Positions 5,248 through 35,119 of a DNA stretch of 64,000 nucleotides are shown in pieces. The number at the start of each line of letters is the position of its first letter. The first letter of the stretch is position 1. A program made the position numbers and the translations under genes. The DNA comes from Candidatus Saccharimonadota bacterium (GTDB taxonomy: Bacteria > Patescibacteriota > Saccharimonadia > Saccharimonadales > Saccharimonadaceae). Where the stretch lies: positions 4,120-68,119 of the forward strand of contig JAFUCF010000012.1 in NCBI GenBank assembly GCA_017459845.1. Direction: 5' to 3'. The notes below the pieces were generated by a model. It saw only the letters and a program-made list of their open reading frames with translations. It did not search any database and was not told the origin of the DNA.

Positions 5248-7101
5248 TTACTGCCTCGAGAGTTTTCTTTTTAAGACATAGCAGGCGGAGGCTACAATTA
5301 CTATCGTGAATATGGATGTATATGCCACTAGCTGAGCCTCCTGGACCGTGGCGTTATCGCCAGTATTTGGGACGGCCGGTGCCGGTATACTATCTTCGTT
5401 TTCTATGATGACAACTGTTTCAGCGGATTCATCTTCCCTACTTTCTTCTTCCTCCTTCTCTTCTGGTTTATCTTCTTCTGGCTCATCATCAATCACAATT
5501 AAACTCTTTAAAATTGGCATAATGCTCTCTGGGATGTGCCCGTAAACTAAGTTTTTAAAGTTGGAGGCAAGGGAGTAGGTGTAATATAACGAATAGTTAC
5601 TACCAAAGGTATCTTGAGTGTATTTTGCGTCGGCAACGATAAGCGGCGCTAGGGCCTTGACTAGTTTTGGAAGGTTCTCTTTTATAACGGAGTATTCTGC
5701 CATTGTTACCTTTGGTACCTCACCGAAGTTGTTTTCGTAATCTTCATATTCGCCCATGTACCTTGAGAGGTAGGAAATGAAATCGTCGATATCGGCTTCT
5801 ACGGCGGTACCCCTTAGGATTTTAACTAAATCTTGGTAAGGCGGGAAATTGCCTAGTATTTCTGCTAGGGTGCTACCAGGATATGTACCGCTTAGTAAAT
5901 CAGCAAAAGCGTTACCGGCTACCATACCAGCAAGGCCACTATCTGTATTCTTAAGAAAATCTGTAAACTCACTTTGTTTGTCTAAGGTGCGTAGCTGATA
6001 AAGTTGCATGATGGCCGAAAGTGGCGACTTAACTTCCGAATTGAAGTACTCGCGCGTTAGGCCATGCGCAATCATAAATCCAAACCAATCGTCCATAAAT
6101 TCTTTGCCATTTTCTTTGCCGACTTCTTTAGTTAATCCTTCATTAGACGAAAGGAGATTGAGCGCTCTAGAGCTGTCCGTTAAATCGGAGATATCAACTA
6201 CGGAGGTGCCAATTTCTAAGTCGGCGGGGTGTATTTCTTCATAAACGCCCGTATTGTAGAACCCCCAAAGTTCTGGGAATACGTACCCGAGTAGGAGATC
6301 GTTCCCGTCTTTTACGTCGTGAATGTTGGAATACTGAGTTTCTTCTACACTAGCTTTTGGCGCACCAAAAGTGTACGCATACAAGTTTTCTGGAGAGAGC
6401 TTGAAGCTAGCAATATTATCATTAATGTTTTTAGCTGCTAGATCAACAACGGCACCACCGCGAGAATAACCCACAATCCAGAGTTTGTAATTACTGAGAT
6501 TCCGACTAGCAATGTATTGGCTTAGCCTGTCTGTGATGAGACTTGCAGACTCGGCAAAGCCAGCATGATCGCCGCTCGTGCCGACATTGAAATTCGATAG
6601 CCACTCGGTCATATAGTTATAATTGCGTGGGGCAACGACTACTAGTTTTTCCCCGCTCATTAGCGTCTTCTCAGCGATGGTCGTGCCCATGGAATGCCCA
6701 TCAATCTCAGAACTAACATCCCATGACTCATAGTCGTGGAAGCCAAGTTGATTAAGAAGATCCCAGAGCTTAGGGTTTGCAACATCCGATTCTATAGGAT
6801 AGCCATCTGATAAGTTTTCATAGCCAGCCAAAGCCAAAGCATAAGATAGGGCGCGTAGCTCTGGATGCTCCCCTGCTGACGGCTCATCAAAGAATGTATC
6901 GCTATATTCTATGGTGCCTGTTTCGTCTAGGGCATCATAGACCGAGCCCCAAGGGTTATCAGGATCTTCAATGAACCCATAGTACGGGTATGTTACGGTG
7001 AACTTTTCGGCTGCCTGGACGTTTAGGGCTAGTGGGTTTAACAAAGAAACACCAACAACCAAGCCTACGCTGGCGGCGAGTATATTGCGGCGGCTAATCA
7101 T
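5248..7101 (-). CDS. Secreted class-3 lipase-like alpha/beta hydrolase with a C-terminal VPNTG-TM-basic anchor
   Basis: N-terminal signal ending AQA-like (VQAA); nucleophile elbow GYSRG; YTFGAP; candidate Asp (NDLL) and His (GHIPE); acidic linker; VPNTG, a hydrophobic helix and KRKLSRQ. Confidence 0.75.
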   Translation of the reverse strand: MISRRNILAASVGLVVGVSLLNPLALNVQAAEKFTVTYPYYGFIEDPDNPWGSVYDALDETGTIEYSDTFFDEPSAGEHPELRALSYALALAGYENLSDGYPIESDVANPKLWDLLNQLGFHDYESWDVSSEIDGHSMGTTIAEKTLMSGEKLVVVAPRNYNYMTEWLSNFNVGTSGDHAGFAESASLITDRLSQYIASRNLSNYKLWIVGYSRGGAVVDLAAKNINDNIASFKLSPENLYAYTFGAPKASVEETQYSNIHDVKDGNDLLLGYVFPELWGFYNTGVYEEIHPADLEIGTSVVDISDLTDSSRALNLLSSNEGLTKEVGKENGKEFMDDWFGFMIAHGLTREYFNSEVKSPLSAIMQLYQLRTLDKQSEFTDFLKNTDSGLAGMVAGNAFADLLSGTYPGSTLAEILGNFPPYQDLVKILRGTAVEADIDDFISYLSRYMGEYEDYENNFGEVPKVTMAEYSVIKENLPKLVKALAPLIVADAKYTQDTFGSNYSLYYTYSLASNFKNLVYGHIPESIMPILKSLIVIDDEPEEDKPEEKEEEESREDESAETVVIIENEDSIPAPAVPNTGDNATVQEAQLVAYTSIFTIVIVASACYVLKRKLSRQ

Positions 7102-8776: not shown

Positions 8777-8983
8777 CTATTTCTTCTTGGAAAGAGTCAA
8801 GAAACCATTCCTTGGGTTTTCATTGACAACGCGATCCTCTGGAAGATCACAAGGAGTGCCCTTGCCGCCATCTTCAGTCTTGGTGAAGAAATAGATTGTC
8901 TGTGGCTTGCCACCGCGGAGAGTGACCTCGGACTTTCTTAGATAATAAGTTGTACCTTTGCTGTTGACATGTTTGTAAGCCAT
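8777..8983 (-). CDS. Small basic conserved hypothetical protein
   Basis: 68 aa with SD AAGGAGG upstream and its own terminator; MAYKHVNSKGTTYYL...LRGGKPQTIYFF pattern. Confidence 0.75.
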   Translation of the reverse strand: MAYKHVNSKGTTYYLRKSEVTLRGGKPQTIYFFTKTEDGGKGTPCDLPEDRVVNENPRNGFLTLSKKK

Positions 8984-9077
8984 GTTCCTCCTTAGTTGAT
9001 TGTATTTCTATCTTATATCTCTTTACAATACCTGTCAAGGTTTTTCTAGCTTGATTGTAAATTCTACCTAGCGTCTC

Positions 9078-9210
9078 GCATAATCAGCTCGTAACTTGGG
9101 TATTTTGGGGCCCTGTCTTCAAAAGCAATCCCATAAATTTCTTAAGGAAATTTATGGGCCCCTCTTTTGAAGCCACCCCAAAATAGCCCTAAGTAGGTCA
9201 CTGATTATGC
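9078..9210. repeat. Imperfect palindromic element, copy A (133 bp)
   Basis: Nested inverted repeats GCATAATCAG/CTGATTATGC, TATTTTGGGG/CCCCAAAATA, CTTCAAAAG/CTTTTGAAG and CCCATAAATTTC/GAAATTTATGGG; motifs shared with 13870-14011. Confidence 0.85.
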
Positions 9211-9932: not shown

Positions 9933-11189
9933 ATGAATATTTATATTGCGGGAATTTCTGGAACAGGGATGGGGCCATTAGCTTTGATGGCAAAGGCGGC
10001 GGGATTTACCGTTTTTGGCTCAGACCTTAATGAAGGGGCAGTGGCGGCAGAATTACATAGAGAAAACATACCGGTAAAATTTGGGGCGCAGGATGGCGCC
10101 TTTCTTAGAAAATGCTACGAGGAGGAGGGGGTAGACTGGTTTGTCCATACCTCGGCGATGGGGAAAGATGCACCAGAGCTAAAAATGGCTGAAAGGCTGG
10201 GGGTGAGAATCACAAAGCGCGATGAGTTGATTGCATATCTTGTTAATAAGCTAGGGCTCAAAATGGTGGCCGTGGCAGGGACGCACGGCAAAACAACTAC
10301 CACAGCCCTTATTACTTGGGCATCGCTACAGCTAGGTTTGCCGGTAGCTTATCTCGTCGGCTCTACGCTTCCCTTTGCAGAAGCCGGGGCTTACTCACCA
10401 GATTCAAAATTTTTAGTCTATGAGGCGGACGAGTATGACCGCAATTTTTTGAAGTTTTACCCATGGGCAGCAGTGATTACGACGGTTTCTTATGACCACC
10501 CGGATATTTATCCAACAAAAGAGGATTACAAAGCGGCATTTGATAAATTCATTTCTCAGAGCGATCGTCTGATTTCAATCCCAAGCGAGCCGGATGATGA
10601 GTATCTAGCTGCGGTAAAGCAGCTAAACCTGGCCGGGGAAAAGCGGCGATACGATGCCGAGTTGGCATTAAACGCCGTGATGGCAATGTGCGAGGAAGTG
10701 GGAAAAGAAGTAAGCACTTCAGAAATTGTAGAGATACTAAATCAATTCCCGGGCGTAGGGAGAAGGTTTGAGAGAATCTCACCCGGAGTTTACTCTGATT
10801 ATGGGCATCATCCAGAAGAAATTGAAGCCACGGTACAGATTGCGATAGAAGAAGCAACGCGCCTTGGGCTAAAAGGTGTGGTAGTGGTTTACGAGCCGCA
10901 CCAGAACGTCCGCCAACACGAAGTGATTGATGGGTACCACAAAGCGTTTGAAGGGGCGAAACATATTTTTTGGCTACCAACCTATCTCACCCGCGAAAAC
11001 CCAGAGCTCAAGGTATTACAGCCGGCAGATTTTATCGCACGGCTAGACAATTCAGCCGAGGCTGAGCCGGGGGAGGTTAGCAGAGAACTATACGAAAAGC
11101 TCCGACAATATTTAGAAGACGGTTTCTTATTGCTCTTTATGTCGGCCGGCCCGCTTGACGCTTGGGTGAGAGAGCAGGATTGGAAATAG
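9933..11189 (+). CDS. murC: UDP-N-acetylmuramate-L-alanine ligase
   Basis: GISGTGMG, GTHGKTTT, EADEYD, DHPD, GVGRRFE and DYGHHPEEI motifs. Confidence 0.9.
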   Translation: MNIYIAGISGTGMGPLALMAKAAGFTVFGSDLNEGAVAAELHRENIPVKFGAQDGAFLRKCYEEEGVDWFVHTSAMGKDAPELKMAERLGVRITKRDELIAYLVNKLGLKMVAVAGTHGKTTTTALITWASLQLGLPVAYLVGSTLPFAEAGAYSPDSKFLVYEADEYDRNFLKFYPWAAVITTVSYDHPDIYPTKEDYKAAFDKFISQSDRLISIPSEPDDEYLAAVKQLNLAGEKRRYDAELALNAVMAMCEEVGKEVSTSEIVEILNQFPGVGRRFERISPGVYSDYGHHPEEIEATVQIAIEEATRLGLKGVVVVYEPHQNVRQHEVIDGYHKAFEGAKHIFWLPTYLTRENPELKVLQPADFIARLDNSAEAEPGEVSRELYEKLRQYLEDGFLLLFMSAGPLDAWVREQDWK

Positions 11190-12593: not shown

Positions 12594-14025
12594 CTATGTA
12601 CTCCTTCATTTTAGCTTTAAAAATTTCTGTATCATAGGGAAGAGCGGTGGCGGAGATTTTGGAAGGGGAAAATACCTTAGGGCTAGTTTTTCTTAAATCA
12701 CAAAAGCGGTTAATACAACTAGCAAGAGAATCGGCCGTCTGATGGTCAAAGAATAAACCGTTTTCGCCATCCTTGATGTAATCTAGGGCGCCGCCTTTTT
12801 TGTAAGCCAAGACTGGGCAGCCGGCTGCGAGAGCTTCTACTGGCGCAATCCCAAAAGGCTCTTGGCTAGGGAAAAGATAGCCTTTGGCGTTTTTAAGATA
12901 GGTTTTTAGCTCGTCTTTATCCATTTTAGAGAGAAAAACAATATTGTCATGGCCTTTAGCCATACTTTGAAGTTTCCTGAGCTCTGGGCCATCGCCGATT
13001 AAGACTAAATTTTGGTGGGTTTTAATACAAGCCGCTATGGCAAGATCCAGGCGCTTCCAGTTAACCATACGAGAAGTAGTAATGAAATAACCATCTGAAC
13101 AAAAATCTTGCTCAAGAATTTGACTATTTGACATTTTTATTGTTTTATTATGGTTTTTATTTATTTGACTTTTCCCTACTTTGTTTTGTGATAAGTTTTC
13201 CACAGGGCTTGAATTTTCCCACATAAATGTTTTAGTATCAACTGGCGGGTAAATTACGGTTGCTTCCCTCTTATAAAAGCGCTTGATTTCCTGTTTGGCG
13301 TAGTTGGAAATAGTGATGTAATAATCTGGGAGTTTGGCAGCCGCGTAATCTTTTTTACGCATAGGTTTGACAAAAAGCTTTAGGCCTAGCCGGGCAAGCG
13401 GGTTAAGAAGGCCAAAGCCGGGATCTTTGAGGTACTGATCATATAAACCCCAATAGTACTGGGTAGGGACGTGACAAAAGCATATATGAGTAGTTTTTCC
13501 ACGGCTTGTGGAAATCTCTGTTCGGTTTTTTAAATTTTGTTCGGTTTTAATCTTATCTTTGTGAGTTTTGACATATTTTGCCTCGGCCCCCGTAACAGAA
13601 ATTACTAAGTCGTAATCCGTGAGGTCTAGTTTTTTGAAATAGCGAGCCCGGATTGGGCCAATAAATTTGCGGAGGCAATTGGGAAAATGCTGAAGGTAGC
13701 CGGTGCGGACATCGGCGTCTTTGAACCAGGTAATTCCCTTTGGATCGTATTTGGATGTATAGATAGGGGCAGATGGGAACATCTGGTGAAGCTCTAATAA
13801 AACCTTTTCCGCGCCACCAAAGTTTATAAGCCAGTCGCAGGCTAAGGCGACCTTTAAATCACTAGGCGCGCAAGCTGGCTCGTCCCGCAGGTGTTTTGTG
13901 GTCCTGTCCCGCACATCCCCAATAATCCTCGCCCGAGCTTCGCTCGTGCTCGGCTTTTGGGGGCCCCGTGCGGACCACCCCAAAACAGCCTTGCGAGGGT
14001 TACCAGCTTGCTTGTCGTCACTCAT
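12571..14025 (-). CDS. Glycosyltransferase family 4 carrying three in-frame insertions
   Basis: KVALACDWL..GGAEKV, YPPVD and EPFGIAPVEALAAGCPV; ATG at 14025 overlaps the upstream stop as ATGA. Confidence 0.9.
   Translation of the reverse strand: MSDDKQAGNPRKAVLGWSARGPQKPSTSEARARIIGDVRDRTTKHLRDEPACAPSDLKVALACDWLINFGGAEKVLLELHQMFPSAPIYTSKYDPKGITWFKDADVRTGYLQHFPNCLRKFIGPIRARYFKKLDLTDYDLVISVTGAEAKYVKTHKDKIKTEQNLKNRTEISTSRGKTTHICFCHVPTQYYWGLYDQYLKDPGFGLLNPLARLGLKLFVKPMRKKDYAAAKLPDYYITISNYAKQEIKRFYKREATVIYPPVDTKTFMWENSSPVENLSQNKVGKSQINKNHNKTIKMSNSQILEQDFCSDGYFITTSRMVNWKRLDLAIAACIKTHQNLVLIGDGPELRKLQSMAKGHDNIVFLSKMDKDELKTYLKNAKGYLFPSQEPFGIAPVEALAAGCPVLAYKKGGALDYIKDGENGLFFDHQTADSLASCINRFCDLRKTSPKVFSPSKISATALPYDTEIFKAKMKEYIDEKIGVR
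13870..14011. repeat. Imperfect palindromic element, copy B (142 bp), inside the GT4 reading frame
   Basis: Nested inverted repeats GCAAGCTGG/CCAGCTTGC, TGTTTTG/CAAAACA, TGGTCC/GGACCA, CCGCAC/GTGCGG and CCGAGC/GCTCGG. Confidence 0.85.
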
Positions 14026-32656: not shown

Positions 32657-33724
32657 TTATTTATACAACCCTAGATGCTTGTTTCCGTCGTAAATCATGG
32701 TTGGGATGCCTTTAGGCTTGATTTGATTTTCTACCACCTCGCGAATTTTCTTGATGTGGTCTGAGACCTCGGAGGATTTGGCTTTCTCCGTAATGGTTTT
32801 AATCTGGGCGTCGCTCAAACCCCATTCTTTAAACCAAGATTTAATAGTTTTTTCAGCGGTTTCTTCATCGTACTCATTATCAAAGAGATACTGATAGTTC
32901 TGGCCGCTCGTATTTTGGCCAGTATATATTTGATTAATTAATTTGAGGCTGAGATTCTTATACGCCGTGCCGTCTTGGCTTGCCGACGTTAATAAGAGCG
33001 CATAATAGTAATTAGTAATGAGCGGTGAATTCTTAAACTTTGGAGTGCCACCATCCGCCTCAATCACATAAAGCATAATATAGACTTTGTGGTTTTTGAG
33101 GAATTCTTCATCTTTCATCTGATTGCGGAAAGATGAAAGACAAACTGTACAGCCTGGATCCATAATGTCTAGCGCGGACGGGATGTTATCTTCACCATTA
33201 TTTTGGCCAGATAGTTCATTGATGGTCTCAATAGGCGTAACAAGATAATCAGAGGCATTCCAATTCTTTAAACGATCTGGAATGGCAGCAAAAATCTCGC
33301 CCCATTCTGAAAACCAGTTTAGATTCTCCTCGTCTATAGAGCAAGATTCTGCGCCGAGGGCACAAGAGGCGGGATGAGAAACATTACAAGTGCCAAGCGC
33401 CCAAAGGGCGAGGCCGGCCTTTACGCCTTCTACGAGCGACCAAACCGTAATAACCACGATGAGCACACTGGCGATTTCTATAACTCTGCTAAGGGGTTTA
33501 ACTGCCTTTGGCTTTTTTAGGGCAACTTTTTTAAGTAATACCGCCTTTACGTCATCCTGAAAACTAGTGTCGCATTTTCTAAAGGTAATGTGGCGAGTAA
33601 AACAATGCCAAGATTTTTTTAAGACCTTTAAATACTTTTTGCCTAAATCGCGTTTAAAAATGCTAATGAACGCGACAAAGATACCTATAACAATTAAAAT
33701 AATAAATGCTGCAATGCAAACCAT
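32657..33724 (-). CDS. Membrane protein with a C-terminal DsbA/thioredoxin-like domain
   Basis: CTVC (CxxC) in DPGCTVC and a cis-Pro-like GIPT; N-terminal TMs with extra Cys. Confidence 0.6.
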   Translation of the reverse strand: MVCIAAFIILIVIGIFVAFISIFKRDLGKKYLKVLKKSWHCFTRHITFRKCDTSFQDDVKAVLLKKVALKKPKAVKPLSRVIEIASVLIVVITVWSLVEGVKAGLALWALGTCNVSHPASCALGAESCSIDEENLNWFSEWGEIFAAIPDRLKNWNASDYLVTPIETINELSGQNNGEDNIPSALDIMDPGCTVCLSSFRNQMKDEEFLKNHKVYIMLYVIEADGGTPKFKNSPLITNYYYALLLTSASQDGTAYKNLSLKLINQIYTGQNTSGQNYQYLFDNEYDEETAEKTIKSWFKEWGLSDAQIKTITEKAKSSEVSDHIKKIREVVENQIKPKGIPTMIYDGNKHLGLYK

Positions 33725-33759
33725 ATATTTATTATATCATAGTAATTTTTACATCAGAA

Positions 33760-33930
33760 TTACCACTATCTAGCCTTTGCTAGACGCTACTCGCCGCCCG
33801 CTACCGCCGAAAAAGCACAACAAATAGCCTATCTTCAGAGCGCTTATATTTGGCGCTCTTCAGATAGGTATTAGTTGTACTTTTTGCGGGGCGAGTAACG
33901 CATTGTCTAGCAAAGGCTAGGTGGTGGTAA
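33760..33930. other. 171-bp rod-like imperfect hairpin (candidate ncRNA or MITE-like element)
   Basis: 26-bp terminal inverted repeat with 2 mismatches, plus inner stems TACTCGCC/GGCGAGTA, AAAAAGCACAAC/GTTGTACTTTTT, CCTATCT/AGATAGG and AGAGCGC/GCGCTCT. Confidence 0.8.
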
Positions 33931-33943
33931 CAGACTGGCGTAG

Positions 33944-35119
33944 TTACAAGTTAGTTAGGGCTTGTTTTACTTTTTCAATGTCGGATGGGCGGGTGTGGTA
34001 GCCAAGGGAGAAGCGAAGGAGCGGCGGATAATGTTTGACGTGATCTAGATAGTAGTGGACGCAGAAGTAACCGGTGCGAACCATAATCCCCTGCTCAGCC
34101 AAGGCGGAGCCTAAAAAGTGAGAGTCAAAGCCTAGCTCGCTCCGGTCTACATAAAGCGAAATAGTAGGGTTAGGCAGTTCGTTAACGACGTGCAGGCTAG
34201 ACTTACTCTTGAGGAACTCATAAAGCTCAGTATAGTTTTGCTCTAAATTACGATGGTCGTCTTTGCCTAAACCTTCTAACCAATCTATTGCCGCGCCGAG
34301 CGCAATTATCTCACCCCACGCCTGAAGGCCGGACTCAAACTTAGTGTAGGCGTGTTCTGGATCTTCAGATAGGAGGCTATAGGCCTCTTTATCTACATCG
34401 CTAACCATACCGCCACCAACAAAACCCGTTTCTATAAATGGCAAGAAATCCCGCCGCATAATGATGCCACCAAGAGAAGGGGCATACATTTTGTGGGCGG
34501 AAAAACAAATAGCATCGGCTGAGGTCTTCTCTAGGATATCCTTAGAGTGAGCCATAGCCTGAGCGGCGTCAATGATAAGGAAGCCACCGTTCTTATGAAT
34601 ATGCTTTTCTAGAGCTGTGATATTTTCTAGCCGACGGCCGTCAATATTGGAGGCGGCATTCACAACGACTAAGGCATGACTAAAATCGGTGGCATCAAGC
34701 GAGATGCTGCCATCATTATTTCTTGTGACAACCTCCCGCGAGATACCCGTACGCTTAGAGAAAGCCATGGTAGAGAGGAATGGAGAGTTATGCTCTATGT
34801 CGCTCGTAACAATTTTCTTAATGCCGGCCTTTTCTGGATTAAACTGGGACAAAACTAGGTTTAAACCGTAAGTAGTGTTAAGAGTAAATGACACGAAATA
34901 TTCTTTTTTCTTAAGCTTTAGATATCTTAAGACCTTTTCGCGGGCGGCGTTGACTTTTTGGTCGGTGGTAACACCCCAAGGGTACTTTACCCGCTCGCCG
35001 CAAGAATTAAATTGCTTATAATATTCTGTCAAAGCTCTAATTACCGGCTCTGGGCGCAAGCTCTGGCAGGCAGAATCTAGATAAATATCATTTTCTTTGA
35101 GATAGTTAAAATCGTTCAT
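33944..35119 (-). CDS. Class V PLP-dependent aminotransferase, cysteine desulfurase (SufS-like)
   Basis: YLDSAC, EHNS, DAAQ, FSAHKM (PLP Lys) and RTGYFC (persulfide Cys). Confidence 0.85.
   Translation of the reverse strand: MNDFNYLKENDIYLDSACQSLRPEPVIRALTEYYKQFNSCGERVKYPWGVTTDQKVNAAREKVLRYLKLKKKEYFVSFTLNTTYGLNLVLSQFNPEKAGIKKIVTSDIEHNSPFLSTMAFSKRTGISREVVTRNNDGSISLDATDFSHALVVVNAASNIDGRRLENITALEKHIHKNGGFLIIDAAQAMAHSKDILEKTSADAICFSAHKMYAPSLGGIIMRRDFLPFIETGFVGGGMVSDVDKEAYSLLSEDPEHAYTKFESGLQAWGEIIALGAAIDWLEGLGKDDHRNLEQNYTELYEFLKSKSSLHVVNELPNPTISLYVDRSELGFDSHFLGSALAEQGIMVRTGYFCVHYYLDHVKHYPPLLRFSLGYHTRPSDIEKVKQALTNL

Follow-up and report, generated by a model that had tools for sequence, protein, structure and literature searches.

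Structure and setting of the palindrome

The stretch of DNA analysed here (64,000 nt, referred to as the window) carries on its minus strand an aminotransferase gene followed by a gene of 355 aa, and a 171-nt imperfect palindrome can be read directly from the sequence in the spacer between them. The palindrome begins 13 nt beyond the stop codon of the aminotransferase gene and ends 35 nt ahead of the ATG of the 355-aa gene. The features of the locus, listed in the direction of transcription with the palindrome and its parts between the two genes, are:

33944..35119, minus strand: upstream gene, class-V aminotransferase (PF00266)
33760..33930, no strand assigned: the palindromic rod in full, 171 bp, belonging to a repeat family (from the fold, the match to covariance model R1 and the relatives' spacer, which is without the rod)
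33905..33930, plus strand: right outer arm, paired with the left arm (2 T.G wobbles)
33845..33851, plus strand: apical loop TATATTT, A/T-rich
33802..33809, plus strand: conserved one-sided 8-nt bulge TACCGCCG (family consensus CTACCGCC/CTAACGCC)
33784..33906, plus strand: conserved core, matched at 98% identity by the copy at C38:80851-80973
33760..33785, plus strand: left outer arm, locus-specific in sequence but showing the family's degenerate pattern TAGC..TTTGCTAG
33731..33739, minus strand: extended -10-like element TGATATAAT, seen in the sequence between the rod and the downstream gene
32657..33724, minus strand: downstream gene, 355 aa, syntenic with the aminotransferase gene across the genus; no Pfam match

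A preliminary description of the locus had reported a 171-nt hairpin between co-oriented genes, with a 26-bp terminal inverted repeat, an 8-nt one-sided bulge and the flanks CAGAA and CAGAC, and all of these elements were recovered. The outer arms were found by a repeat search (26 nt each, 92% complementary), and their two mismatches are both T.G on the plus strand. RNAfold gives the 171-nt rod -101.4 kcal/mol on the plus strand and -102.2 on the minus strand (z = -12.0 and -10.6, respectively), with none of 200 shuffled sequences folding equally well, and the single-strand fold is an almost fully paired rod without a central bubble. The same description had seen no clear homology between the rod and two other palindromes of the window, copies A and B (9078-9210 and 13870-14011); our comparison agrees, and such homology is rejected.

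Intrinsic terminators consist of a short G+C-rich stem followed by a U tract. An identity of this kind is also rejected, given that there are no terminator-like sites in 33500-34100 and that the sequence 3' of the rod on the transcribed strand, TTCTGATGTAAAAATT, offers no U tract. The element TGATATAAT stands exactly 6 nt upstream of the ATG at 33724 (minus strand; window 33725-33739), and a TATAAT-type motif is present near the ATG of the 355-aa gene in most of the aligned relatives. It was read from the sequence and is conserved in relatives, a two-hexamer promoter scan did not call it, and it is predicted to be a promoter of the leaderless type. With this promoter-like TATAAT lying between the rod and the next gene, the aminotransferase transcript most likely takes in the rod as a passive part of its 3' end. 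Among the sequencing runs, none clearly labelled as RNA contained the locus. The family-consensus orientation corresponds to the plus strand of the window and is antisense to both neighbours.

A repeat family of Candidatus Nanosyncoccus

The genome that contains the window (G000; 737 kb, 41 contigs) belongs, by its ValRS relatives, to a ruminant-gut Candidatus Nanosyncoccus (Saccharibacteria), and DNA sequencing runs of sheep or goat small intestine contain this organism. A genome-wide copy search, which the preliminary description had proposed, established that the rod is multi-copy with at least 19 copies: 18-19 copies on 13 contigs were found by blastn, nhmmer and a covariance model, and a sister subfamily adds two further copies. 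The covariance model (R1), built on 14 copies, matches the window copy at 33768-33922 with 169.5 bits. Every copy folds as a rod of 155-211 nt. In the family alignment 91% of the cells are paired and 46 of the 62 base pairs show double-sided changes; none of 500 shuffles did as well, and slid partners were paired in about 40%. Mismatches of the G.T and A.C kinds stand at 45:14, with the G.T excess on the strand opposite most flanking genes, a count that was not used to choose an RNA strand because it is partly inherited from shared positions. The apical loops of most copies (e.g., window 33844-33852) read TATATT, TATAAT, TATAGT or TATGTT in family-consensus orientation, thereby resembling a -10 hexamer, without TG extension, that points antisense to most neighbouring genes.

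With R1, copies were detected in 18 of the 201 species of the genus and in none of the 184 other genera of the order. Copy number ranges from 0 to about 14 across the species of the genus, with at least 19 in G000, and it is high only in G000, G166 (14 copies), G020 and G181 among the 201 species. The weaker R1 matches carry the core motif AAAAATACAAC.GTTAG...CTAAC.GTTGTATTTTT and, on the strength of this motif, are taken to be real relatives. In this survey the family is confined to the genus Candidatus Nanosyncoccus, with a patchy copy number. No paper linking Saccharibacteria with palindromic elements of this kind was found in the literature searched, and the family is apparently unpublished.

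Gain and loss of copies

The order of the aminotransferase and the 355-aa gene is kept across the genus, which permits a comparison of filled and empty sites, another check put forward in the preliminary description. In G000 the two genes are separated by 219 nt, made up of 48 nt and the 171-nt rod. G020, the closest species (85% protein identity), has a spacer of 55 nt, and the spacers of ten aligned genus members span 3-55 nt, all without a rod. These alignments show that a short spacer gained the 171-bp rod in its entirety, once the lineage had parted from the nearest species sampled.

The reverse case is found in G166, where a copy (L190, C86:2622-2778) faces a clean empty site in G000 (C41:30729-30742). 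The native left flank at this site, AGGGGCTAAG, contains the stop codon of the gene, and the insert ends with a 10-nt inverted copy of it, CTTAGCCTCT, with no direct duplication. Loss is illustrated in G000 at C18 (~5440-5515), where a left outer arm and 24 nt of core are fused to a right outer arm, and G166 has a full element (L191) at the place of this remnant. As read from such a comparison, copies decay by internal deletion. In other metagenomes, all related strains keep the rod at the window locus, with no empty allele and no within-species insertion polymorphism, and the contigs of these strains break inside the repeat. The uniform presence of the rod in strain variants counts against its reading as a selfish repeat.

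Copies within protein-coding genes

Five rods of G000 lie in frame and free of stop codons inside genes:

ArgRS copy, C18:6640-6807: found in the main search, wholly inside a long reading frame
ValRS copy, C14:1500-1672: found in the main search, wholly inside a long reading frame
DnaX copy, C23:5135-5292: found in the main search, wholly inside a long reading frame
PheT and LepA copies, C20:19893-20060 and C20:7551-7727: DnaX-type subfamily (the sister subfamily), in frame, stop-free

The frames in use contain no stop codon in any of these copies, and the intergenic copies of the main subfamily have stop codons in all six frames. ArgRS, ValRS and DnaX are each encoded by a single copy in G000, and the insert of 56-65 aa is missing from most orthologues. 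Two types of insert peptide recur, ...RSSEDRLNVV... in ArgRS and ValRS and ...KEISPRETTT..VVVSNGREISRSE in DnaX, PheT and LepA. The ValRS genes of G020 and of three other species have recognisable copies at this same position, and one further species has its copy elsewhere in the gene. The pattern of frames and stop codons indicates that copies within genes survive only as stop-free, in-frame peptide insertions.

Several details of these genes are worth recording. A 9-nt direct repeat, AATCTTCTT, lies 10 and 13 nt outside the ArgRS rod (G000 C18:6615-6830); it is the sole such case among 17 copies and possibly due to chance. Directly past the DnaX rod (G000 C23 ~5290-5560), two tandem copies of the peptide EISRSENPPSPASQDLKT.QRTP, together with degenerate ones, form a repeat array that starts with the peptide of the rod's outer arm. 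In G020, contigs end at the element within both the ArgRS and the ValRS gene (C54/C120 and C20/C92), so that such rods break short-read assemblies.

Core and outer stem

The window copy and the copy at C38:80851-80973 are 98% identical over 123 nt, and their outer arms are unalike. Among 23 copies, mean identity amounts to 0.77 in the core and 0.43 (ungapped) in the outer arms, with a correlation of 0.13, and the arm-to-arm complementarity within each copy is 0.89. The outer arms share a degenerate pattern, TAGC..(A/G)GG..TTT..(A/G), ahead of ACGC, and are therefore part of the element, though faster evolving. At one orthologous site in three species, the copies are closer to paralogues of their own genome than to each other. 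At orthologous sites, conservation is higher in the core than in the adjoining coding DNA, which could also reflect host-level selection on the core.

The occupant of a site may also differ between species. The ValRS site is occupied by one subfamily in G000 and by another in G020, and at two intergenic sites the palindrome family present depends on the species. At the site corresponding to window 9078-9210, G000 has a family-A palindrome and G020 a rod-family copy (L023, C8:4782-4940), and both occupants are bracketed by the same outermost 8-bp stem, ATAATCAG...CTGATTAT. Elsewhere in G000, a family-A palindrome (C17:8709-8838) adjoins a rod-family copy (8850-9033), where G020 and G166 have the rod-family copy only.

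These observations can be tentatively read as the ~120-nt asymmetric core being a cassette that enters, as a copy, palindromic stems already present at and specific to each locus, or is exchanged among such stems, by hairpin-targeted homing or gene conversion without a transposase and with an inverted duplication of the flank added at fresh insertions. The 98%-identical core in unrelated stems, the three sites with differing families or subfamilies and the 10-bp inverted flank of L190 all point in this direction; we regard this joint proposal as possible, with the balance of probability against it.

Origin and spread of the rod

We consider it highly probable that the rod belongs to a family of selfish DNA, non-autonomous, shaped as a hairpin and specific to Candidatus Nanosyncoccus, of which it is a copy lying between genes. 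Besides the uniform strain variants, the G.T excess and the strong conservation of the core are points against this reading. The explanation that competes best with this reading, itself unlikely, is that of an RNA element useful to the host, such as a 3'-UTR hairpin that shields mRNA from 3' exonucleases, an RNase III site or an insulator of leaderless genes; the window rod would then be the functional 3' end of the aminotransferase mRNA, and such a role would be compatible with a selfish origin. Most intergenic copies begin 0-40 nt past the stop codon of the upstream gene or overlap it, the covariation is very strong, the core at orthologous sites is better conserved than its coding surroundings, and the window rod lies directly upstream of the TATAAT of the next gene, all of which would suit a role of this kind. 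The position at 3' ends is, however, also where purifying selection would leave a parasite, and copies inside genes cannot act as 3' ends. The missing U tract and terminator-like sites and the ten aligned genus members without a rod at the locus, the closest species included, argue against such a role, as does the occurrence of intergenic copies in both orientations (about 12 to 4).

As a canonical MITE, the rod would be a deletion derivative of an IS, moved in trans by way of conserved terminal inverted repeats and leaving a direct target-site duplication. The preliminary description had offered a MITE-like insertion with a degenerate target-site duplication as one of its two readings. Its first half stands, as the rod is multi-copy and the relatives' spacer is empty; its second half does not, as the presumed duplication does not exceed random controls. 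The best flanking direct repeat of 17 copies averages 1.94 against 1.97 in random controls, and a test with wide slack gave 4.8 against 4.4 (P = 0.16). A direct target-site duplication is rejected by these two tests, and the resemblance of CAGAA to CAGAC is attributed to chance because flanking direct repeats match the random controls. There are no conserved termini across the copies beyond the degenerate TAGC..TTT pattern, and a search for the Y1 (HUH) transposase PF01797, the one transposase family searched, found it in none of ten genomes (G000 and nine relatives, the high-copy ones included), with controls matching in six. IS were otherwise sought as multi-copy sequence in G000, and no multi-copy IS is among its long multi-copy sequences, which lie at contig ends and represent surface-protein paralogues. 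Size, palindromic shape, patchy copy number and the filled and empty sites of related genomes would all fit a canonical MITE; given the differing termini, the chance-level duplication and the missing multi-copy IS and Y1 transposase, we hold this explanation to be very unlikely. The lack of a target-site duplication, conserved termini, a Y1 transposase and a multi-copy IS points instead to a behaviour like that of the Rickettsia palindromic elements (RPEs).

The contig-end paralogues (C2, C5, C16, C31 and C40; C9, C17, C20, C30 and C33) are 1.1-1.9 kb long, 85-94% identical, and encode large secreted repeat proteins; these, rather than IS, are the long repeats that fragment the assembly.

The other reading of the preliminary description, a structured non-coding RNA with a size and shape compatible with 6S RNA, did not hold. 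6S RNA is typically encoded by a single conserved gene and has a large central bubble that mimics an open promoter. The proposed Infernal search with RF00013 and all of Rfam gave no match for the rod: at gathering score the whole window yields two tRNAs only, a permissive scan of 33600-34100 (E <= 10) returns chance matches only (e.g., a plant miRNA precursor with 19 bits against a 107-bit cut-off), and RF00013 finds nothing in the whole 737-kb genome, with control genomes matching. A stand-alone structured RNA gene is hence extremely improbable and the 6S identity is rejected, for beyond length, overall rod shape and compensatory base changes the rod shares little with such a gene, having an 8-nt bulge in place of a central open bubble, at least 19 copies of which five are in frame in genes, and no counterpart at the syntenic locus of relatives.

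For the selfish repeat favoured here, spread would proceed without a classical cut-and-paste transposase, as the absence of a target-site duplication, of conserved termini and of a Y1 transposase suggests. The probable route is either the folded single strand, at replication forks, or recombination among rods already in the genome. Whole rods would insert at new sites, and their cores may later be homogenised or replaced among the resident rods, so that gene conversion, or renewed insertion at sites already occupied, would keep the ~120-nt core alike within a genome. The outer stem would drift yet stay paired, through intrastrand template switching (quasi-palindrome correction) or selection for pairing.

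Relation to known palindromic repeats

The closest parallel is provided by the Rickettsia palindromic elements RPE-1 to RPE-10 (Ogata et al. 2000/2002; summarised in PMC10969869), palindromic repeats of ~150 bp in a reduced genome. They lie between genes as well as in frame in unrelated housekeeping genes, whose products thereby gain additional peptides; they comprise several coexisting families and have no known transposase. The rod family is likewise multi-copy, of similar length (155-211 bp), intergenic, and in frame without stop codons in unrelated housekeeping genes, a likeness claimed here as a functional analogy only. The rods differ from the RPEs by belonging to another phylum, by intergenic main-subfamily copies that are not open reading frames, and by a shared core within a locus-specific outer stem. 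The window rod is a real and ordinary member of this RPE-like family of repeats.

In the long-hairpin MITEs of bacteria, such as Correia/NEMIS of Neisseria, ERIC, RUP and the QMITEs of Coxiella, the terminal inverted repeats are conserved and the target site is duplicated, e.g., TA (PMC10969869, PMC5896051). They resemble the rods in being non-autonomous, 100-200 bp long, shaped as long hairpins, mostly located at gene ends and able to fuse with ORFs, whereas the rods have neither conserved terminal inverted repeats nor a target-site duplication. REPINs/RAYT and palindromic elements derived from IS200/IS605 depend on a Y1 (HUH) transposase (PMC3337134, PMC3733652). Like the rods, these repeats are built on hairpins, and they are considered to move in single-stranded form, leaving no target-site duplication; however, PF01797 is absent from G000 and nine relatives, and REPs are much shorter than the rods.

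Long palindromes in a reduced genome

The rod family is one of several kinds of long palindrome in this genome. A BLAST census of self-complementarity in G000 counted at least 53 long rods of 90-240 nt, about 1% of the genome, at least 11 of which lie inside long ORFs; copies A and B are the others within the window. By similarity they fall into 16 clusters, of which five are multi-copy. The window copy belongs to a cluster of 14, and the largest cluster, with 18 copies (e.g., C41:21820-22045; tandem pair C8:10281-10453 and 10459-10627), is unrelated to it.

Saccharibacteria have some of the smallest genomes among free-replicating bacteria, and here a reduced genome tolerates rods inside aminoacyl-tRNA synthetases, the clamp loader and LepA. 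The phenomenon of selfish DNA in protein-coding genes, described in Rickettsia, would thereby be extended to an unrelated and likewise reduced lineage. Rods of this kind break assemblies, inflate protein lengths and may be mistaken for non-coding RNA genes, and the pattern of a shared core within private stems makes a convenient system in which to learn how long palindromes persist and are exchanged.
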